Virus record (IMG/VR): IMGVR_UViG_3300034200_001536
Location: 1 to 64,000 of that record
Length of the DNA: 64,000 nucleotides
Origin: a virus
Reading direction: 5' to 3' (one strand)
Below, one piece after another: positions 28,004 to 60,575 of this stretch. The position numbers and the translations under genes are program-made. Positions within the stretch are counted from its first letter, which is position 1, and each line of letters opens with the position of its first letter. A model generated the notes under the pieces. That model was given only the letters and a program-made list of their open reading frames with translations. It did not search any database and was not told where the DNA came from.

Positions 28004-28032
28004 TTTGATACTATTTATAGAAAAGTATCAAA
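28004..28032 (+). promoter_or_regulatory. late promoter ACTATTTATA within a 9-bp inverted repeat
   Basis: TTTGATACT-N11-AGTATCAAA. Confidence 0.6.
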
Positions 28033-30916: not shown

Positions 30917-31895
30917 GGCAGATAATACAAAATACTATCCTTTTTTGCCAAAAGGTAGTTCTTTAGACGGCTTTAAGACAGTTAGTAATACCGATTTTGC
31001 TCCCACGCAATACGGTGAAATAATTTCTGGCTCTTATGCATATTCTTCTTCTATAAGTACAGAATATTTTTATCAAGTAAGTGGTTTTGTTAGTGAAAGA
31101 AGGCGAATTTATGCCCTTAAAAACACTTTAAATAGTTATCTGCATTATAGTCAGCATTACGCATATAGTTCTAGTTTAGGTAACAAAGCAGACCAAGCAT
31201 TAAATCTAATCAATATTCCGTCTATTTTTTATGGTTCTTCAATAGATAAAGGTAGCATAGAATTATCATACTATATATCTGGTACTCTTGTAGGAAAATT
31301 ACAAGATATTAATAAAAACGGTGAACTAATACAAACGACAGGAGCTTTAGGATTAGGACAAGTGGCAGGTGTAGTATTATATAACGAAGGCTTTATAGTT
31401 CTAACTGGTTCTTGGAAATTAGATAATAATTTTCAGGAAACGCTAATTTATAACCCTTCAGCAGCAACCGATTATGCTCGATGGATAAATTGGGGAGCTG
31501 GTTTATATCGTGATGATAATAATACTATTTCAGCTAGCTTTGATTTAAATTTTGAAGGCGTTAATTATATTAATACCGTTACCATGTTTGCGCATGCTGA
31601 TAAAGGAGAATTAAACCACTCTAATAATCCAACATATGTTAAATACTTAAATACTGGTTTTTCGCAGCCAACAATAACAAATAATTCTTATAGTGAATAT
31701 GCTTATAGTGAAATAAAAAATGTTGTAAAATACTCTTATGAAAATTTTACAGGTAGCTTAGAAAAACAAACTTTTATTTCTAAAATAGGCATATATGATG
31801 AGAATAAAAATCTTATTGCAATTGCAAAATTAGCAAAACCAATTAAAAAAACAGAAAATCGTGATTTTACCTTTAAGCTTAAATTAGATATATAA
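30915..31895 (+). CDS. putative baseplate/collar virion protein (paralogue of 29022)
   Basis: ELNHSNNPTY and FISKIGIYDENKNLIAIAKLAKPIKK. Confidence 0.6.
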   Translation: MADNTKYYPFLPKGSSLDGFKTVSNTDFAPTQYGEIISGSYAYSSSISTEYFYQVSGFVSERRRIYALKNTLNSYLHYSQHYAYSSSLGNKADQALNLINIPSIFYGSSIDKGSIELSYYISGTLVGKLQDINKNGELIQTTGALGLGQVAGVVLYNEGFIVLTGSWKLDNNFQETLIYNPSAATDYARWINWGAGLYRDDNNTISASFDLNFEGVNYINTVTMFAHADKGELNHSNNPTYVKYLNTGFSQPTITNNSYSEYAYSEIKNVVKYSYENFTGSLEKQTFISKIGIYDENKNLIAIAKLAKPIKKTENRDFTFKLKLDI

Positions 31896-31896
31896 A

Positions 31897-33906
31897 ATGA
31901 GTACAGATATTGAGACAGATTTAAATAAAAATATAGTTTTTGTGCCAAGTTCCATAGAAACAATGGATTCGGCATTATTTGATTATATAGAAAATCTTAA
32001 TATCTTTTGCAATACTATTAATGGCTGGGATAAAATCCCAATAATCTGGGCTTCCGCAGAGCGTTCATACCAAATAAAAAATAATAAAGCTTTAAGAGAT
32101 AAAAACGGTAGTCTTATTCCTCCGATTATCTCTATTGAAAGAACTTCTATTTTAAAAGACCCTAATAAAAAAGGCACTTTTCAATCGAACGTATCCCCAA
32201 AAGACGACCGTTATTATATAACTAAGGTTTTAAATCAAGATAAAACTTCTAATTTTGCCAACGCTGATGCTTTAAAAAACAATAAGCAATTAAATTTCGT
32301 TACTTCCAAAAAAAATAAAAAAATAGTTTATCAACATATAGCGGTTCCAAAACCAATTTATGTGTTTGTAGAATATAAAATTAATATTTTAACAAACTAT
32401 CAAGGCCAAATGAACGAAGCCATACAGCCATTTATGGCTCGTACGGCGCAAAACTATTTTACTATTAAAAAAGATGATTATAGATTTGAATGTTTTATGG
32501 ACCCGACTTTTTCGCAAGAAAGCGTTGCTGATTTAGGCGAAGAAGAAAGAAAATTTAAAAGCTCTATTATTATAAAAGTACTTGGTCAATTAGTTGGTGA
32601 AGGTCCAAATCAAGAAAAGCCACAACTTGATATAATTGAAAATGCCGTAGAGGTAAAATTACCAAAAGAAAAAGTTGTTATCGATACTCCGTTACGTTCT
32701 ACAAGAAAAATAAAAGAAAAACAAGCTGCTTTATCAACAGTCATTAATAATCAGCCGGAACCTATATCTAGAAATAATTTACAAGACAGTATTAATAAAC
32801 AAATAAAGGCTGAAGTATCTAATGATGGCGAAGCGGCAACAACAGAAAAAACAAAAAAGAATAATTTATCTGCTAGCAACATAGAAACTATAGATGGTGC
32901 TTTTTTTGATTATATAGAAAATCTTAATGTTTTTTGTAACACAAATGCTGGTTGGAATAAAGTGCCCGTGATTTGGGCTTCCGCAGAACGTTCTTACCAG
33001 ATAAAAAATAATAAAGCCCTAAGAGATAAAAACGGTACTTTAATATCGCCAATTATATCCTTAGAGAGAGGCAATATTACTAAAGACCCCAATAAAAAAG
33101 GCAATTTTCAATCAAATGTGTCACCAAAGAACGATAGATATTACATAACAAAAGTTTTAAATCAAGATAAAACTTCTAATTTTGCCAACGCTGATAGTTT
33201 AAAGAATAATAAACAGTTAAATTTCGTTACTTCCAAGAAAAACGAAAAAATTGTTTATCAACATTATGCTGTTAGGATTCCAGTTTACATAACTATTGAA
33301 TATAAGATAAACATAATGACAAACTATTTGATGCAAATGAACGAAATAGTACAGCCGTTTATGGCTCGTACCGCACAAAGTTATTTTGTTATTAATAAAG
33401 ACGGCCATAAATATGAAGCGTTCATGGAACCAGAATTTTCTCAAGAAACTATTTCTGATTTGGGAGAGGAAGAAAGAAAATATAAAAATACAATAACTGT
33501 AAAAGTATTAGGCTATCTTGTTGGAGAAGGTGAAAATAATTTAGATAGAAATATTAATATTGACGAAAACGCAGTTGAAATAAAGTTTCCTAAAGAAAAA
33601 ATAATAATCGATGGACCTAAAAAAAGATTAAAAAAAGAAATCAGTTCACAAGGCGTATTTGAGCTACCTAATACTGGAGTAGGTGGTACTAACAAAAAAT
33701 CTTTTGTTATAGGAAATGGAATTGATTCCATCTACACCATATCACATGGCTTAAATACAAGAGATGCATTCGTGACCGTTCGTGAAGATTTTAATGACCA
33801 TAATCAAGTTATAGCGTTTATTACGTTTGATACATTAAACGCCATAACGGTGGATATGGGTGAAATCATTGAAGAAAATAGCTATGTAGTAACAATTATT
33901 GGCTAA
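31897..33906 (+). CDS. tail completion/terminator-like protein (gp15/gp3-like) with tandem domain duplication and C-terminal fibre-type domain
   Basis: Two copies of IETxDxA.FDYIENLN..PxIWASAERSYQIK..ENAVExKxPKEK; C-terminal GNGIDSIYTISHGLNTRD; family call tentative. Confidence 0.55.
   Translation: MSTDIETDLNKNIVFVPSSIETMDSALFDYIENLNIFCNTINGWDKIPIIWASAERSYQIKNNKALRDKNGSLIPPIISIERTSILKDPNKKGTFQSNVSPKDDRYYITKVLNQDKTSNFANADALKNNKQLNFVTSKKNKKIVYQHIAVPKPIYVFVEYKINILTNYQGQMNEAIQPFMARTAQNYFTIKKDDYRFECFMDPTFSQESVADLGEEERKFKSSIIIKVLGQLVGEGPNQEKPQLDIIENAVEVKLPKEKVVIDTPLRSTRKIKEKQAALSTVINNQPEPISRNNLQDSINKQIKAEVSNDGEAATTEKTKKNNLSASNIETIDGAFFDYIENLNVFCNTNAGWNKVPVIWASAERSYQIKNNKALRDKNGTLISPIISLERGNITKDPNKKGNFQSNVSPKNDRYYITKVLNQDKTSNFANADSLKNNKQLNFVTSKKNEKIVYQHYAVRIPVYITIEYKINIMTNYLMQMNEIVQPFMARTAQSYFVINKDGHKYEAFMEPEFSQETISDLGEEERKYKNTITVKVLGYLVGEGENNLDRNINIDENAVEIKFPKEKIIIDGPKKRLKKEISSQGVFELPNTGVGGTNKKSFVIGNGIDSIYTISHGLNTRDAFVTVREDFNDHNQVIAFITFDTLNAITVDMGEIIEENSYVVTIIG
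31951..33612 (+). repeat. intragenic direct duplication, about 735 nt x2 (31951-32686 and 32878-33612)
   Basis: Long identical tracts, e.g. gttttaaatcaagataaaacttctaattttgccaacgctgat, occur in both copies. Confidence 0.9.
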
Positions 33907-33941
33907 GTAAAAACCGAAATAATTCTTTTTCTAAATTTAAA

Positions 33942-34028
33942 ACTATTTATTATACAGCGATTTTAATCGGTTGTTTAGATTAAGGCGCTATTTTTTTATC
34001 CGCCCTATGGGCAAGGAAAAGTATTACA
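33942..34028 (+). promoter_or_regulatory. late promoter plus structured leader (hairpin, T7, RBS hairpin)
   Basis: ACTATTTAT; AGCG-a-TTTTAATC/GATTAAGG-CGCT stem; T7; GCCC/GGGC stem; AAGGA. Confidence 0.65.
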
Positions 34029-35759
34029 ATGGCTAATCCATTAAAGATTTTAACAGTTTTGACAGCATCACAAGCTGCAAAATTTGAACAAGGTTTAAGT
34101 GTTAACTCACAAAAAATCACTAACGTTGCTGATGCAACAGTTGCAACCGATGCAGTAGCATACGGTCAATTAACTGCAGTATCAGGCGCAATGAAGAGCT
34201 ATGTAGACGCTCAAGATACAGCACTCTCTGGTGCATTTGACGCCCGCATGGTAGCATTAAGTGGCGCCGCCGCAACAGCATTAGTAGCAGAAGCAGCAGC
34301 ACGTGTTGCAGGCGATGCAGCAGTATCAGGTGCATTAAAAACCTACGTTGATGGCAAAGACACTGCACAAACATTAGCACGCGATGCACTTTCTGGTGCA
34401 TTAAAATCTTATGTAGACGCTGCAGATGGCGTATTACAAGGTAACTTGAACACTGTTTCAGGTGCAATCAAGTCTTACGTTGACGCAGCTGACACAGTAT
34501 TAGACGGCAGAATCACCAGCGTTTCTGGTGCAATTGTTGCTTATGTCGATGCAGAAAATGCTGCACAAGACGCTGCAGTAGCAGCAATGTCTGGTGCTAT
34601 GAAGTCATACATTGATGCACAAAACTCTGCACAAGATACAGCAGTAGGCAATCTTTCAGGTGCTTTGAAATCATATGTAGACGCAGCAGATTTAGTATTA
34701 GATGGTAGAATCACAAGTGTTTCTGGCGCAATTAAGACATATGTTGACGCACAAGACTTAGTATTATCTGGCGCATTCGATACACGCTTAACCCGCAATG
34801 AAACAGCATTTGGTACATTGGTAAGCAGCTCATTACCAGCAATGTCTGCTTCTATCTCAGGCACTATCTTAGCAGAAAAGACCCGTGCACTAGCAGCAGA
34901 AGCAGTATTATCTGGTAACTTGGCAGCAGAAGTTAGCCGTGCAACTGCAGCAGAAGGTGTTCTACAAACCAACATTGACGCAGAAGCAACAGTACGCGCA
35001 GCAGCAGATGCCACATTGCAAAGCAACATCACCGCAGAAGCAAACACACGTTCTGCAGCAGATGCAGCATTAAGCAGCAGCCTTGCAGGTGAAATCAGCC
35101 GTGCATTAGCAGCAGAAGCAGTATTGTCTGGTAACTTAGCAGCAGAAATTAGCCGTGCAACCGCTGCAGAAGGCACACTCCAAAGCAACATTGACGTAGA
35201 AAAGGGTCGCATTGACGCTATCCTCTCTGCTTCAAACGCTAATTACGATACCTTCAAGGAAGTAGTTGATTTAATCAACAGCGTTGATACAACAAACGAC
35301 AGCGCATTCGCAGGTTACGTAATAAGCAACGATGCTGCTATTGCCACTCTTTCAGGCGCATTAAACACAAAGATTGACAATGAAGTAACACGTGCAACTG
35401 CTGCAGAAGCAGTATTGTCTGGTGGTTTAGCACAAGAAGTCAGTGACCGTGCAGCAGCAGTAGCAGCAATGAAGACAGCATACAGTGCAGCACGTTTCGT
35501 ACAAACTGGCTCATTAGTATCTGGCGCAGTAGTTGTTTCCTTCGCAGCTGAAGGTGCAATGTTCGCTGTAGCAGAAATGGGCAACATCGCATTAGACGTA
35601 ATGGTTGATGCAGATGGCTCAGGCTATACCAACGACTTGGTAGCAGTTAAGATGTTCTCTGATGGCGGCGTATTGAAAGTACAAATCGACGCTCCAGCAA
35701 CACCAAGCGCAGGCTATCGCTTAATCGCTGTAAATGAAAAGAAGGGCGGTTTGAACTAA
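34029..35759 (+). CDS. long trimeric coiled-coil fibre (whisker/collar-like)
   Basis: YadA-neck-like KITNVADATVATDAVAYGQL; 22-aa and 18-aa repeats; DTFKEVVDLI; shared C-terminal module. Confidence 0.75.
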   Translation: MANPLKILTVLTASQAAKFEQGLSVNSQKITNVADATVATDAVAYGQLTAVSGAMKSYVDAQDTALSGAFDARMVALSGAAATALVAEAAARVAGDAAVSGALKTYVDGKDTAQTLARDALSGALKSYVDAADGVLQGNLNTVSGAIKSYVDAADTVLDGRITSVSGAIVAYVDAENAAQDAAVAAMSGAMKSYIDAQNSAQDTAVGNLSGALKSYVDAADLVLDGRITSVSGAIKTYVDAQDLVLSGAFDTRLTRNETAFGTLVSSSLPAMSASISGTILAEKTRALAAEAVLSGNLAAEVSRATAAEGVLQTNIDAEATVRAAADATLQSNITAEANTRSAADAALSSSLAGEISRALAAEAVLSGNLAAEISRATAAEGTLQSNIDVEKGRIDAILSASNANYDTFKEVVDLINSVDTTNDSAFAGYVISNDAAIATLSGALNTKIDNEVTRATAAEAVLSGGLAQEVSDRAAAVAAMKTAYSAARFVQTGSLVSGAVVVSFAAEGAMFAVAEMGNIALDVMVDADGSGYTNDLVAVKMFSDGGVLKVQIDAPATPSAGYRLIAVNEKKGGLN

Positions 35760-35761
35760 TA

Positions 35762-35819
35762 TAATCTAGTTGAAAAATTAGATTAGGGAAGGGAGGCAGA
35801 AATGCCTCCCTTCTTTTTT
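35762..35819 (+). terminator. intrinsic terminator preceded by a second hairpin
   Basis: GAAGGGAGGCA-GAAA-TGCCTCCCTTC-T6; upstream TAATCTAGTT-GAAA-AATTAGATTA. Confidence 0.9.
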
Positions 35820-35830
35820 AACGTTAAAAA

Positions 35831-35909
35831 ACTAATTATTAAAGAGGTCTAGTTTGTATTTTAGACTTCTATTTTTTTATCTGCTCTGACGAGCAAGGAA
35901 AGTATTACA
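35831..35909 (+). promoter_or_regulatory. late promoter plus structured leader (hairpin, T7, RBS hairpin)
   Basis: ACTAATTAT; AGAGGTCTA/TAGACTTCT stem; T7; GCTC/GAGC stem; AAGGA. Confidence 0.65.
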
Positions 35910-36428
35910 ATGGCTAATGAAAGACCATTAAAAATTTTAACAGATTTAGTAGTTGAACAAGATATTACAGTTAGCGGTTCTACTGTAGTTTCAGGCTCAG
36001 AATATTTACATACAACTGCTTCTTTTACAAATGTAAATGTAAATAAAAGCGCTGATGGCATGTACGATGTTGATACAGCTATTCATGCTTTAGACACAGC
36101 TATTGGCACACTAGAAAATAGCGTTAAAAATGCTTATGAAAACTTAAGATTGGTAGTTACAGGTACTTTAGATGGTAATGGCAATAAGAAAATTAACTTA
36201 ACTTCTACTGCCGTTTCAGGTTCAACTTATTTTAATACTAGTTCTTTAAAGCTAGTTGACGTATCGGTTTTGTTAGCCGGTGAAGATTTAGTATATAAAA
36301 ATGATTTAGTTTCAGTTCAATTATATAATTCTGCTAGTGCTTTATGGGTTGAAGTTGATGCTCCAGCTTCACCAAATGCAAACTATCGTTTAATTGTCTC
36401 TAATAACGATTTATTACCGTTGGTATAG
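35910..36428 (+). CDS. short fibre-family paralogue
   Basis: PLKILTDL N-terminus; YKNDLVSVQL..VEVDAPA..YRLI module. Confidence 0.75.
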   Translation: MANERPLKILTDLVVEQDITVSGSTVVSGSEYLHTTASFTNVNVNKSADGMYDVDTAIHALDTAIGTLENSVKNAYENLRLVVTGTLDGNGNKKINLTSTAVSGSTYFNTSSLKLVDVSVLLAGEDLVYKNDLVSVQLYNSASALWVEVDAPASPNANYRLIVSNNDLLPLV

Positions 36429-36442
36429 GGGGTATTTAAATC

Positions 36443-38068
36443 ATGGCTAATAAAATAAAAGTTTTATCTAACTTAACAGCAAGTCAAGATATTATTGTAA
36501 AAGGAAATACAGTAACATCTGGTTCAAAACAATTATCAACCGATACAGCATTTAATAATGCTGTTGTGGCTACTTCTTCAGATGGCATGTATAATGTAGA
36601 TGAAGCTATTCATGCAATTGATACAGGTTTAACAACATTAAAAAATGATATAAAAAATGCTTATAATCTTGTAAGAGCGGTATTAACAGGAACACTAGAG
36701 TCTAACGGTAATAAAAAAATTAATTTAACTACCACTATTGTTTCTGGTTCGTTATATTTTAATACTTCTTCTTTAACTCGCATCGAAGCATCACTATTTA
36801 TTGATGAAAATGGTGATTCGACATATAAAAATGATTTAGCGTCATTACAGCTATATAATTCTGCAAGTTATCTTTGGGTAGAAATAGACGCTCCAGCTGC
36901 CACTAATGATGCGTATAGTTTGATTTTAAAAAATCAATTTTTATTACCATTAGCTGGTAGCGATGGCATTGGAAATGGAAATAATAATGGCGGCGGCGGT
37001 GGAGGTGGTGGAAACCAATATATGCTCACCCCATATAACACAAATCCAACTGGTAGTATAAGTGGCTCTATATCTGGCACTAGAGAAGGATATTATGTAT
37101 TCCCAGATGTTTATGGTAATGTAAAATTTACATTTAATGATTTTTCTTCTTCCGCTGATAATTCAGGAATTACATTCTATGTAATGCCAAATAATTATTC
37201 TGGTAGTTTAACTTACAGCCCAACTACTAATTTAATTAATACTACTGGCGTTGGAAAAATAGTTACTTTACAAGGTCCAAATTTAGCAAATCTCAGTTTA
37301 TCCGGTAATGGTATAAGTGGCGTTAGTGCTGGCTATCCAAGCGATTATACAAGAGATATATATAACAATAATCTCAACACTAACATGCATGTACACGATG
37401 GAGTTGTAGATTTTACTATTCCGGTGGGCACTGGTTCGGCTGTTTATGTTGATATAGTAGGCCCTGTAGCTTACGATATAAACTGGACAGGCGGTGCGTA
37501 TTATAATCCTTCAGCGGAACAAATAACTTTTGTACCAACAAATATAGGTGGCTATTATGTACCGCCTATAAATGATTTTAATACAAACTATAAAGATACT
37601 TATATTTCCGCTTCTGGTACTCCAACTAGAATATATATTCCACTAATAAATTCTGATGGTACCTATAAGCCTACTTTAACACCAGTAAGCGTAGAAACAC
37701 CAACTGGCTTATATGTAAGAATTAATAGTTATATTCATAGTTTGAGATTCTTCTCAGCTTATAATCCAACAGCAAATATTAATGATTTTGCTCCCGGTGT
37801 TAATGCTCTAGGAGAACCGACTGTTCCCGGTGTCGGCTTTAATGAATATGGTAATTTTGATTCTATGAGTTTTATTAATTACATGAGTGTATATTCTTTT
37901 GACGACTCAATGTTTTATACTCCACAATCTCCATATCCAATAGTAATTTTTGTACCTTCTCGTAACGGAGTTGCTAAATTATGGATTGTAAGTTATCCAC
38001 AAACAAATCCGCCACCACAATCGGGTTATACTAACGGAATAGGTAATATAGAGGTCTGGACGGCATAA
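36443..38068 (+). CDS. fibre-family paralogue with poly-Gly linker and unique C-terminal domain
   Basis: First ~170 aa closely match 35910; GNGNNNGGGGGGG linker; Y/P/G/T-rich C-terminal domain. Confidence 0.75.
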   Translation: MANKIKVLSNLTASQDIIVKGNTVTSGSKQLSTDTAFNNAVVATSSDGMYNVDEAIHAIDTGLTTLKNDIKNAYNLVRAVLTGTLESNGNKKINLTTTIVSGSLYFNTSSLTRIEASLFIDENGDSTYKNDLASLQLYNSASYLWVEIDAPAATNDAYSLILKNQFLLPLAGSDGIGNGNNNGGGGGGGGNQYMLTPYNTNPTGSISGSISGTREGYYVFPDVYGNVKFTFNDFSSSADNSGITFYVMPNNYSGSLTYSPTTNLINTTGVGKIVTLQGPNLANLSLSGNGISGVSAGYPSDYTRDIYNNNLNTNMHVHDGVVDFTIPVGTGSAVYVDIVGPVAYDINWTGGAYYNPSAEQITFVPTNIGGYYVPPINDFNTNYKDTYISASGTPTRIYIPLINSDGTYKPTLTPVSVETPTGLYVRINSYIHSLRFFSAYNPTANINDFAPGVNALGEPTVPGVGFNEYGNFDSMSFINYMSVYSFDDSMFYTPQSPYPIVIFVPSRNGVAKLWIVSYPQTNPPPQSGYTNGIGNIEVWTA

Positions 38069-38122
38069 AGTTTAATTTAAACTTTGGTTTGGGTGGCAGA
38101 AGTTTTGCCACCCTTTCTTTTT
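38067..38122 (+). terminator. intrinsic terminator preceded by an AT-rich hairpin
   Basis: GGGTGGCA-gaagttt-TGCCACCC-TTTCTTTTT; upstream AAAGTTTA/TAAACTTT. Confidence 0.85.
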
Positions 38123-38128
38123 AAAAAA

Positions 38129-38137
38129 ACTATTTAT
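38129..38137 (+). promoter_or_regulatory. putative late promoter ACTATTTAT (near-leaderless mRNA)
   Basis: Motif 7 nt upstream of ATG 38145. Confidence 0.6.
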
Positions 38138-38144
38138 TATTACT

Positions 38145-38348
38145 ATGAAACGTAAAATAACTTATCTTATTAAGGACTTTGACAAAATAATGCGTGAAAT
38201 ATTACCACATACTGGCGATTTTCGCAAAGAAGTTATGTTGCTAAAACGTAAAGAAGAATTTGAAGAAATAATAGATAAAATGGCAGAAAAATACGATAAA
38301 ATAATAGAATTAATAGAACAAGAAAAGGAACTACCAGATGAAGTATAA
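38145..38348 (+). CDS. small hypothetical protein
   Basis: 67-aa charged ORF after a promoter motif. Confidence 0.65.
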   Translation: MKRKITYLIKDFDKIMREILPHTGDFRKEVMLLKRKEEFEEIIDKMAEKYDKIIELIEQEKELPDEV

Positions 38349-38592
38349 GTTTTCTTTTATACAAGTAACTAACTGGCTAATGATTTGTCGTGAAAATTTG
38401 ATGAAAATACGCGAAGAAGCAAACGAAGGTTTTGAAGATAAGCAAATTGTTATAGAAAAATTAAAAAAACAAAAACGAGATTTATTGTTAGTAAAAGATA
38501 TTCTAAACAGAAAAATTAGATTACATGGAATAAGCCCAGATTTTTTAAAGAATTTTAAACAAATTAAGAAAGAATATGGAATAAGCGATTAG
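38338..38592 (+). CDS. small hypothetical protein
   Basis: 84-aa ORF overlapping the previous stop; AAGGA RBS. Confidence 0.65.
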   Translation: MKYKFSFIQVTNWLMICRENLMKIREEANEGFEDKQIVIEKLKKQKRDLLLVKDILNRKIRLHGISPDFLKNFKQIKKEYGISD

Positions 38593-58848: not shown

Positions 58849-59154
58849 ATGAGTAAGCGTCCTGTAAATTTAGAAACAAGATTACCAAAAGGTTTACAAC
58901 CATCATTAGAAAATAATGAATTATTGATTAATAGATTTTTAAAAGCTTGCAGCAAAGAATCCCTAACACAGTATCTTTATGATTATTCTGCTTATACAAG
59001 ACGATTTGACAAGCCCAGCGTATTAGAACGTCAACGTCAATTACAATATAAGCGTAATGCTAAAAAAGCAAATCAATTATTGATGACTGACCCTGAAGTT
59101 TCCACAAAAAAGAAAAAGAAAAAGCCTGCTAAACGTGCAGAATCAGCACAATAA
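58849..59154 (+). CDS. rpsU: phage-encoded ribosomal protein bS21 homologue (divergent)
   Basis: ELLINRFLKACSKESL...RRFDKPSVLERQRQ aligns by eye with bS21 ALRRFKR.C.K.G....RE.YEKPS..RK.K; basic C-terminus; adjacent to scaffold and capsid genes. Confidence 0.7.
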   Translation: MSKRPVNLETRLPKGLQPSLENNELLINRFLKACSKESLTQYLYDYSAYTRRFDKPSVLERQRQLQYKRNAKKANQLLMTDPEVSTKKKKKKPAKRAESAQ

Positions 59155-59170: not shown

Positions 59171-59199
59171 ATTAATACTAATTAAGTAAAAGTATTAAT
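59171..59199 (+). promoter_or_regulatory. late promoter ACTAATTAA within a 9-bp inverted repeat
   Basis: ATTAATACT-N11-AGTATTAAT. Confidence 0.6.
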
Positions 59200-59225
59200 C
59201 TTTTTCCTGCATACAGGAGATATTC

Positions 59226-60575
59226 ATGTCAGATTTGTTACAACAAGCGATGATTGATGCTGCCGCTTTAAAAGAAGCAGCCATTAAGAATGCCGAAAAC
59301 GCATTGATTGAAAAATATTCTCAAGAATTCAATCAAACAGTACAAAAATTATTAGAACAAGAAGTAGCGACAGCCCCAGAAGCTGCAGCTGCTTCTTCTC
59401 CATCTCCAGAAACTATGCAAACAGCCGGTATGTCTGATGCAGAACCTTCTTTAGACCCATCTACATTAGACCCAATGGCTGGCGGCTTAGAAACAGCAGG
59501 AGATATTGGCAAAAAGGATGCATTTTCTAAAGTCCCCGGTGCTTTTTCCAATATTTCTGATGATGAAATGATTACAATTAACTTTGACCAAATACGTGCA
59601 ACATTAAATGAAATGTTGGGTTATCAAACAAATCAAGACCCAACATCAGACGCTTTAGCACAAGGTAAGGCGCCTATTAATGTAACCGAAGAAGAAATTT
59701 CTTCACCTTCTAAAGTAAAAGTGAAAGTTGTTGGTGAAAAAGAATCAGAAGAAGAAAAAGAAGAAGAAAAAGAAGAAGAAGAAATGGAAGAATTGGAACT
59801 TGAAGAAGCAGAATTAGCTTCTCCTGAAGTTGTATCTGCCGAAAGAGAATTAGCTGATAAACAAGCTGCTGTTGCTAGTGCACAAAAGAAAATAGGTGAC
59901 GCTAAAGTTAAAGCTGCCGAAGAAGCTGCTCGTAAAGCTAAAGAAGCTGCTACAACAGCCACCCCTTCTTCTCTAGGAGAAGATATTGAATTGACCGAAG
60001 AAGAACTTCAAGAACTAGCTGAAGAATTAAAGGTTGATTTAAAGGTTGGTAACTTAAGCGACGGTTATCTCGGTTCCACAGAAACACAAAAACGTGAACA
60101 GCGTAATGTTGAGTTAGCAGCTGCACGTGATGAAGCGGCAGCAAAAGAACGCGAAGCAGAAATGCAAAAAATGAAAGACTTGATGCAAGAAAACGTAAAG
60201 TATAAAGATTTAAATAGTGAATTATTAAATGCAGTAGAATCATTAAAAGAACAAATGGAAAAAATTAATCTTTCTAATGCAAAATTATTATACACAAACA
60301 AAGCTCTAGGAAATATCTCCTTGAATGAGCGACAAAAACAAAATATTGTCGAATCAATTTCCAAAGCAGATAGTGTATTAGCGGCGAAGACAATCTATGA
60401 AACACTTCAAAATGCGGTTGATAGTGTAGCTAAAGAAAAAGAAGCTCCACAATCACTCCGCGAAGCATTAAATAGAGCACCTTCTCCATTCGTAGTAAAG
60501 AAGTCCTCTGCTAATAATATTAATGACTTAATGGCAGAAAGAATGAAAGCCCTAGCGGGTATCAAAAAACAATAA
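59226..60575 (+). CDS. gp22: prohead core scaffolding protein (T4 gp22-like)
   Basis: Acidic coiled coil directly before the MCP; NLSNAKLLY; C-terminal RMKALAGIK; many LxE sites. Confidence 0.8.
   Translation: MSDLLQQAMIDAAALKEAAIKNAENALIEKYSQEFNQTVQKLLEQEVATAPEAAAASSPSPETMQTAGMSDAEPSLDPSTLDPMAGGLETAGDIGKKDAFSKVPGAFSNISDDEMITINFDQIRATLNEMLGYQTNQDPTSDALAQGKAPINVTEEEISSPSKVKVKVVGEKESEEEKEEEKEEEEMEELELEEAELASPEVVSAERELADKQAAVASAQKKIGDAKVKAAEEAARKAKEAATTATPSSLGEDIELTEEELQELAEELKVDLKVGNLSDGYLGSTETQKREQRNVELAAARDEAAAKEREAEMQKMKDLMQENVKYKDLNSELLNAVESLKEQMEKINLSNAKLLYTNKALGNISLNERQKQNIVESISKADSVLAAKTIYETLQNAVDSVAKEKEAPQSLREALNRAPSPFVVKKSSANNINDLMAERMKALAGIKKQ

Follow-up and report, generated by a model that had tools for sequence, protein, structure and literature searches.

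The window analysed here comprises the first 64 kb (64,000 nucleotides) of the 103,214-bp IMG/VR virus record IMGVR_UViG_3300034200_001536, a phage genome of 33.6% G+C that is ~57% complete and whose DNA is present in runs of lake-water metagenomes and metatranscriptomes. Nearly all genes of the 103-kb record lie on the + strand, and they include those for a T4-type portal, major capsid protein and terminase. Two fibre genes in this window, here called gene A and gene B, are each preceded by a leader composed of a promoter motif, a first hairpin (hairpin 1, formed by stem 1), a run of seven U residues (U7, or T7 in the DNA) and a second hairpin (hairpin 2, formed by stem 2) that adjoins the Shine-Dalgarno (SD) sequence. 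A first-pass annotation had pointed to this shared layout upstream of 34029 and 35910, and sequence reading and folding recovered every element where it had been reported (Table 1). The leader is a conserved RNA-level structure located downstream of a real promoter motif, and we tentatively read it as the 5ʹ untranslated expression leader of separately promoted fibre modules.

Genes A and B are paralogues that have a common N-terminus (MAN..PLKILT) and a common C-terminal module, and the genes at 36443, 38605 and 39755 belong to the same family. The match of gene A to the YadA stalk is above the Pfam threshold, and this coiled-coil match makes the name ‘fibre’ reasonable. A megablast search with positions 33000-37000 against GenBank phages gave no match, and the nearest cultured relatives, Flavobacterium phage immuto and Microcystis phage Mel-JY01, are related at the protein level only (portal ~44% identity). 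Homologous leaders were located by pattern and protein scans in four more IMG/VR records and two metagenome contigs, which brings the collection to 7 records in total. The clade that carries the leader is a narrow group of uncultured freshwater T4-like phages.

Architecture and conservation of the leaders

When leaders A and B are folded singly, each yields hairpin 1, an unpaired U7 and hairpin 2. A 13-mer (CTATTTTTTTATC) is present at exactly two sites in the 103-kb genome, which are these two leaders. Hairpin 2 follows U7 at a distance of 4-5 nt, and the SD-to-AUG distance is 10-11 nt in all leaders. Both the GGA of the SD sequence and the AUG are predicted to be paired in the A and B leaders (p ~0.9 each); a third hairpin that holds the start codon of gene A is a prediction confounded by the conserved N-terminal peptide MAN..PLKIL. 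Throughout the phage, an SD-like motif accompanies 49 of 95 genes, compared with a background of 6%. The ORF (open reading frame) at 58849-59154 of the window had no Pfam match at E <= 0.01.

Table 1. Positions of the fibre genes, their leaders and adjoining elements in the window (z compares the hairpin abutting the T-run with shuffled sequences)
Feature	Position	Strand	Description
Leader A	33939-34028	+	Ahead of gene A ATG (34029)
Promoter motif, leader A	33939-33954	+	Letters AAAACTATTTATTA at 33939-33952; core ACTATTTAT at 33942-33950
Hairpin 1, leader A	33956-33968 / 33978-33989	+	12 pairs, one bulged A, 9-nt loop, ~-10.5 kcal/mol; z = -3.4
U7 (T7), leader A	33991-33997	+	Separated from hairpin 1 by A33990 (1 nt)
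Hairpin 2, leader A	33999-34017 (including extension)	+	GCCC 34002-34005, loop tat, GGGC 34009-34012; UCC:GGA extension across AA bulge
SD sequence, leader A	34013-34017	+	AAGGA; partly paired in prediction
Predicted hairpin 3, leader A	34028-34042	+	AAUGG (start codon) with CCAUU (codons 4-5); 5 bp
Gene A	34029-35759	+	576-aa coiled-coil fibre; YadA_stalk match; 22- and 18-residue repeats
Two hairpins at end of gene A	35763-35819	+	TAATCTA/TAGATTA, then GC terminator 35788-35813, -20.9 kcal/mol, T6
Leader B	35828-35909	+	Ahead of gene B ATG (35910)
Promoter motif, leader B	35828-35843	+	Motif 35828-35841; core ACTAATTAT at 35831-35839; downstream of gene A terminator
Hairpin 1, leader B	35843-35852 / 35861-35870	+	10 pairs, 8-nt loop, -11.7 kcal/mol; z = -6.9
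U7 (T7), leader B	35872-35878	+	1 nt after hairpin 1
Hairpin 2, leader B	35880-35899 (including extension)	+	GCTC 35883-35886, loop tgac, GAGC 35891-35894; UCU:GGA extension
SD sequence, leader B	35895-35899	+	AAGGA; adjoins hairpin 2
Gene B	35910-36428	+	172 aa
Gene B and 541-aa paralogue	35910-38068	+	Apparently one transcription unit, ending at terminator 38091-38113

A covariance model built from six A-type leaders recovered 11 leaders with E values between 1e-23 and 1e-5. These comprise six leaders of type A, three of type B and two of type C, located ahead of three paralogous fibre gene types, and the C-type leaders precede a 900-1000-aa gene that starts MAD.RNIKILG. For stem 1, at least five different sequences are represented (two A variants, B and two C variants), all of them paired, and 8 of the 11 pairs of the helix have changes on both sides. 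Across the alignment of all 11 sequences, which was fitted to the model and so favours structure, 97.8% of cells pair, versus 28-53% when the partners are slid. Each leader folded alone adopts the same layout, with the hairpin ending 0-2 nt before the T-run, and comparison with shuffled sequences gives z values from -3.1 to -6.9 for the hairpins that abut this run. The run itself is T7 in ten leaders and T6 in the remaining one, and the spacing between promoter core and stem 1 varies from 3 to 8 nt. The search of relatives envisaged in the first-pass annotation therefore revealed a structure that is conserved in 11 leaders from 7 records.

Stem 2 is mostly GCCC/GGGC but is GCTC/GAGC in leader B of the window and GCTC/GGGC, with a U:G pair, in the B-type leader of one relative (L093:669-756). 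The C:G to T:A covariation that had been proposed for this stem is real, and the relative supplies its U:G intermediate. One C-type leader (L009:4469-4551) retains GCC/GGC alone, and at least seven different loop sequences occur on the preserved stem. A further proposal, that stem 2 can extend to pair with the GGA of the ribosome binding site (RBS), is supported: the TCC/GGA extension is present in the RNAalifold consensus, although the changes that maintain it are all one-sided (C to U). The sequence likeness of the leaders is explained by the shared ancestry of the paralogous genes, whereas their compensated stems are not. Thus, the alternative that the leaders are a duplication relic alone was rejected, given stems that are compensated across 7 records and three gene types.

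The element has a narrow distribution. No more copies were detected with the R1 model in 24 loci carrying more distant fibre relatives, and its matches elsewhere in G000-G004 were all weak (E 0.18-0.54). A degenerate pattern scan of viral contigs returned 55 loci, with the element confined to four related records, and no Rfam family was matched (best scores of 18-27 bits versus gathering thresholds of 46-128). The pattern scan also returned unrelated viral contigs (L074, L089 and L048/L065/L075/L078) in which a terminator, T6, ATT, GCCC..GGCA and an SD sequence precede the ATG. Placement of a small hairpin and an SD sequence behind a terminator may be common.

The promoter motif has the consensus ACTAWTTAT and occurs well beyond the fibre genes. 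The genome holds 16 forward and 4 reverse copies of ACTATTTA; nine of the forward copies are intergenic and lie 16-87 nt ahead of an ATG, although intergenic DNA makes up a few per cent of the sequence. The genes behind these intergenic copies are structural genes and some others, and the customary order in this phage is a stop codon, a GC-rich terminator, the motif, the SD sequence and the ATG. The distance from motif to ATG is usually 33-42 nt, versus 79-87 nt in the two fibre leaders, where hairpin 1 and U7 account for the additional length. The leader copies of the motif show no clear difference from the other copies. No gp55-like late sigma factor was found among 20 ORFs examined, and so the label ‘late’ for this promoter rests on the genes it serves.

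Two further features of the motif were observed. At 38126-38147, a copy abuts the ATG of a conserved small gene whose product begins MKRKITYL, with 7 nt between core and ATG (4 nt in relative G003). This gene either produces a leaderless mRNA or has a mis-set start, and it therefore cannot be used to fix the distance from the motif to the transcription start site. Some other copies of the motif are located within short inverted repeats (28004-28030, G000 99447-99470 and G000 67126-67160), whose arms are GATACT..AGTATC, ATACTA..TAGTAT and GTTGCCTAC..GTAGGCAAC.

RNA abundance and codon usage

Four lake metatranscriptomes (X4, X6, X7 and X9) were compared, as contigs, with positions 31800-38400, the depth being one k-mer figure per contig. 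Contig cover of the gene upstream of leader A (31897-33906) was fragmentary, at a k-mer depth of 0-4, and the uncovered stretch at 33680-33964 is not evidence of absent RNA. Gene A was represented by a single contig in each run, with 100% identity over 1.75 kb; these contigs start at 33997, 33969, 33988 and 33965, with depths of 144, 57, 54 and 36, respectively, and end at 35744-35749. For gene B and its downstream neighbour, the contigs begin at 35860 (in two cases), 35890 and 35958, reach 38061 and have depths of 3-7. A 10- to 50-fold step in depth between adjacent genes cannot be produced by DNA contamination. This step and the contig starts together point to an abundant RNA that begins between the motif and 33965, which fits initiation at the motif. 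In three runs, this RNA holds the 3ʹ arm of hairpin 1 and the U-run.

The ends of the contigs may also carry some structural information. An Illumina adapter is joined at 33969 in the X6 contig, which implies a pile of fragment ends at this position. In addition, contigs that start at the loop or 3ʹ foot of hairpin 1 and end before the 3ʹ hairpins are a weak hint that reverse transcriptase stops at formed hairpins. The X6 contig also carries T8 in place of T7 (33991-33997), possibly a strain variant or homopolymer slippage. The libraries were size-selected, and RNAs of ~40 nt would not appear in them.

Codon usage gives a second view of expression. Among 62 genes, gene A is nearest to the major capsid gene in its synonymous codon usage (r = 0.91), with the sheath-like gene at 0.87, gene B at 0.52 and the 541-aa gene at 0.45. 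The gene A product is probably a high-copy virion protein, e.g. a fibre of the head or whisker type, and not a tail fibre present in few copies. It had been suggested that the leader sets fibre stoichiometry by holding expression down. This idea is not supported, as no RNA contig of the region is more abundant than that of gene A in any of the four metatranscriptomes, and the proximity of its codons to those of the major capsid gene likewise argues against an expression-lowering role. The leader therefore does not keep gene A low.

Candidate functions of the leader

Stem 1 and U7 do have the form of an intrinsic terminator, as the first-pass annotation had recognized, albeit a weak one, with the stem 0-2 nt before T6-7 in all 11 leaders. 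Hairpin 1 has predicted stabilities of -8.6 to -14.8 kcal/mol and loops of 7-12 nt and is often bulged, whereas gene-end terminators of the same genome have values of -12.8 to -22.3 kcal/mol and loops of 4-7 nt. These leader hairpins are thus the weakest terminator-like structures of the genome, yet they have its longest perfect T-runs. Hairpin 1 should thus be a partial terminator at best. Transcription evidently continues past the U-run, as the high-depth contigs of three runs extend from upstream of it through gene A.

Some of the parts of the leader have precedents as determinants of mRNA stability and translation. Stem-loops at the 5ʹ end stabilise the ompA and T7 gene 10 mRNAs (PMC2254391; Emory et al. 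1992, cited in PMC7509114). U-rich regions are bound by 30S subunits and promote the translation of rnd (Zhang and Deutscher 1992, cited in PMC5934652), and unstructured flanks serve as standby sites for a folded RBS (PMC5934652). By the reading that we tentatively favour, transcription of a fibre module would start a few nucleotides downstream of ACTAWTTAT. Hairpin 1 would then lie at or near the 5ʹ end of the mRNA and would probably protect it from 5ʹ-end-dependent decay, as in ompA and T7 gene 10, whereas the invariant U7 would be single-stranded and would probably act as a U-rich landing site (via S1) or standby site for the ribosome. From U7, the 30S subunit would pass into the folded RBS, in which the GGA of the SD sequence is predicted to pair with the flank of hairpin 2 and the AUG to lie in hairpin 3. 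Some termination at ~+40 is physically likely but would be leaky and secondary, and the resemblance to a weak terminator would be incidental. The structure, its conservation through compensated changes, the promoter motif, an abundant RNA that contains the U-run and the capsid-like codons of gene A are observations, whereas the exact start site, the mRNA stabilisation, the standby binding and the degree of termination are inferred.

This reading accounts for the abundant RNA that extends past U7, the capsid-like codons of gene A, the placement of hairpin 1 towards the 5ʹ end, a folded RBS flanked by a U-rich stretch and the presence of such a flank at other strongly expressed genes. It draws on the 11 leaders in which stem 1 has turned over with pairing kept and T6-7 is invariant, and on a strand-specific promoter motif that is enriched in intergenic DNA. 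That unrelated stem sequences all pair indicates that hairpin 1 acts via its structure. A stable monocistronic gene A mRNA also fits, since gene A is always bounded at its 3ʹ side by a strong terminator, and the deep monocistronic contig in four runs hints indirectly at a long half-life. Elsewhere, a U-rich stretch and a mini-hairpin that pairs with the SD sequence were observed in the leader of the scaffold/capsid operon (59177-59228; operon at 59226; UUCCUG/CAGGAG, -7.6 kcal/mol) and in that of the sheath-like gene (G000 64361-64425; 64423; CUCC/GGAG).

Several points weigh against this account. A pure stabiliser needs no U-run directly after its stem, and yet the adjacency of hairpin and U7 survived complete stem turnover in three lineages, as a terminator would require. 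This adjacency is the best argument for real termination, and an expression leader alone leaves it unexplained. Gene B, which has the same leader, shows low RNA depth and ordinary codon usage, and so the leader alone does not confer high expression. The transcription start was placed from motif spacing and from contig starts (33965-33997 and 35860). Contigs reveal neither true RNA ends nor true levels, and their depth reflects expression poorly; the three gene A contigs that contain the U-run (X6, X7 and X9) match at 100% but begin 3-26 nt upstream of it, short of the 31 letters required to call a place bridged. Finally, hairpins 2 and 3 are short, and the SD sequence and the conserved N-terminal peptide confound any reading of their conservation.

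The chief competing explanation, which we judge unlikely but worth serious consideration, is that hairpin 1 and U7 form a promoter-proximal intrinsic terminator that serves as an attenuator or gate, at which polymerase stops after ~40 nt unless the terminator is leaky or a phage factor loaded at the promoter, by a Q-like logic, renders the polymerase resistant to termination. Such a device would time or scale fibre expression. The close and invariant placement of T6-7 after a hairpin whose sequence has fully turned over is what this explanation expects, and a consensus scan called hairpin 1 and the T-run of leader B terminator-like. Moreover, the B and C leaders always follow a strong terminator, and so their hairpin 1 and U7 act on transcripts of their own promoter. 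The low RNA depth of gene B and the precedents of Q and AlpA, which operate on terminators just after promoters (PMC6606751, PMC9371919), are also in its favour. However, the abundant full-length gene A RNA includes the U-run, gene A has capsid-like codons, the hairpins are weaker than any other terminator-like hairpin of the genome, and the 11 leaders have no conserved RNA box, no conserved leader ORF and, in single or consensus folds, no alternative fold. No antiterminator was identified in this incomplete genome, and no Q-like factor was found among ~30 ORFs scanned against PHROGs. A leaky or factor-gated terminator is nevertheless retained as an explanation, because terminated RNAs of ~40 nt are invisible in these libraries. 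A more elaborate form, which we regard as rather improbable, holds that each exchangeable fibre module carries its own terminator gate, opened by a phage factor at the promoter with no RNA box, such that fibres would be switched separately from other late genes and the leader would double as a homology arm for cassette swapping.

Inheritance of the promoter-to-ATG stretch by descent and module-swapping recombination, as a cassette boundary with no RNA function of its own, would agree with the paralogy of the genes and with the leader at the start of each variable module. It is improbable, as stem 1 is wholly changed but paired in all 11 leaders and stem 2 is kept while its loops vary; pairing that is kept through such sequence turnover requires selection on structure. 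We consider it very improbable that hairpin 1 and U7 are an insulating terminator with a nested promoter, ending read-through from upstream while transcripts from the promoter itself begin within the 5ʹ arm and escape for want of the full stem. In T4, hairpins that straddle promoters are used for translational control, and no other terminator lies between the gene at 31897-33906 and leader A. A start ~16 nt after the start of the motif would indeed remove the stem base in leader A of the window (winA), in L092A and L010A and in the B types (leaving -4 to -5 kcal/mol), but the same assumed start leaves the stem intact in L008A, L093A and both C-type leaders. A strong terminator already precedes the B and C leaders, and the variable spacing between promoter core and stem also speaks against an insulator. 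Lastly, the product could be a short late RNA of ~40 nt that acts in trans, as the layout would give a hairpin and U-tail of the Hfq type. Stem and loop sequences are not conserved between types A, B and C, which leaves no common seed, and the hairpin would be the entire RNA; we view this last explanation as extremely improbable.

Other assignments were considered and rejected. A classical attenuator is excluded whether based on a leader peptide, riboswitch, T-box or ribonucleic antiterminator (RAT), since hairpin 1 begins 3-8 nt after the promoter core, leaving no room for a sensor, and there is no alternative fold or conserved leader ORF. The U-run is not itself a promoter, either of the Bacteroidota type (TAnnTTTG) or as a stretched late motif, as RNA contigs begin upstream of it and CTA is not conserved in L008A, L092A and L093A. 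A leader peptide is dismissed because the 9-codon ORF that opens within the stem 2 loop (at 34007) lacks an SD sequence and is missing from L010A and all B- and C-type leaders, the stems of 5-12 bp are too short for an RNase III site, and a DNA operator is discounted by inverted repeats whose sequence differs between copies.

Known systems and fibre module organisation

An expression leader of the type proposed for the fibre modules would have its closest parallels in the ompA 5ʹ untranslated region and T7 gene 10. Shared features are a hairpin, here putatively at the 5ʹ end, that works independently of its sequence on a very abundant mRNA, A/U-rich single-stranded RNA, a second hairpin near the RBS (ompA hp2) and a terminator hairpin at the 3ʹ end. 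In contrast to these systems, the fibre leaders place a perfect U7 directly after the hairpin, in terminator form; their 5ʹ end is deduced, and there is no sequence relation. The Escherichia coli rnd leader similarly has a terminator-like hairpin and U-run between promoter and SD sequence that do not prevent expression, and its hairpin stands before the U-run. The U-run of rnd binds 30S subunits and is needed for translation, and by analogy that of the fibre leaders might do the same. However, rnd belongs to the cell, is weakly expressed and starts with UUG. Ribosome standby sites, such as those of the MS2 coat gene and tisB (PMC5934652), likewise place unpaired RNA immediately 5ʹ of an SD-bearing hairpin, whereas in the fibre leaders this arrangement is predicted alone, with short and weak hairpins 2 and 3.

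Systems that employ terminators near promoters are alike in layout only. Control by Q at lambdoid PR’-tR’ (6S RNA) and by AlpA involves an intrinsic terminator close after a promoter and ahead of late or virion genes. Here, by contrast, a weak terminator lies ~40 nt from the start, there is one per fibre module rather than one per late operon, abundant RNA extends past the U-run, and neither a homologue of Q or AlpA nor a corresponding binding element was identified in the ~57% complete genome. Leader attenuators (leader-peptide, T-box, riboswitch and RAT/BglG types) also place a terminator-like hairpin in a 5ʹ leader, but the fibre leaders have no sensor space, antiterminator fold, conserved leader ORF or RNA box.

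The genes around the leaders are organised as modules. In all relatives, a small AT hairpin stands after gene A, with a strong GC terminator and the motif of the following unit behind it. What lies between gene A and the conserved small MKRKITYL gene is variable: gene B and the 541-aa paralogue in two records, the C gene in two and nothing in two. The spans concerned are 35763-38144 in the window, L008:5692-9036, L009:4300-7553 and L010:5536-5624. Every inserted fibre module brings its own motif and leader, and the variable unit resembles a cassette exchange of fibre modules. In a stretch of ~150 nt ahead of the C-type promoter (L008:5750-5870 and L009:4350-4470), spaced TGGC(T/C) motifs occur four or five times, exemplified by TATGGCTCGACA, ATATGGCTGATA and CTTGGCTCGACA, and form a possible protein-binding array.

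At ~75 nt, the leader is a clean and compact RNA motif that acts in cis, shows real covariation, has in situ RNA support and is absent from Rfam. It demonstrates that a terminator-shaped hairpin and U-run after a promoter can head one of the most abundant mRNAs of a phage, which calls for caution with automatic terminator and attenuator calls in phage genomes. If the leader were instead a terminator gate, it would represent a new way to time the production of receptor-binding proteins. The leader also marks the edges of swappable fibre modules and can thereby aid in reading the host-range cassettes of these phages.

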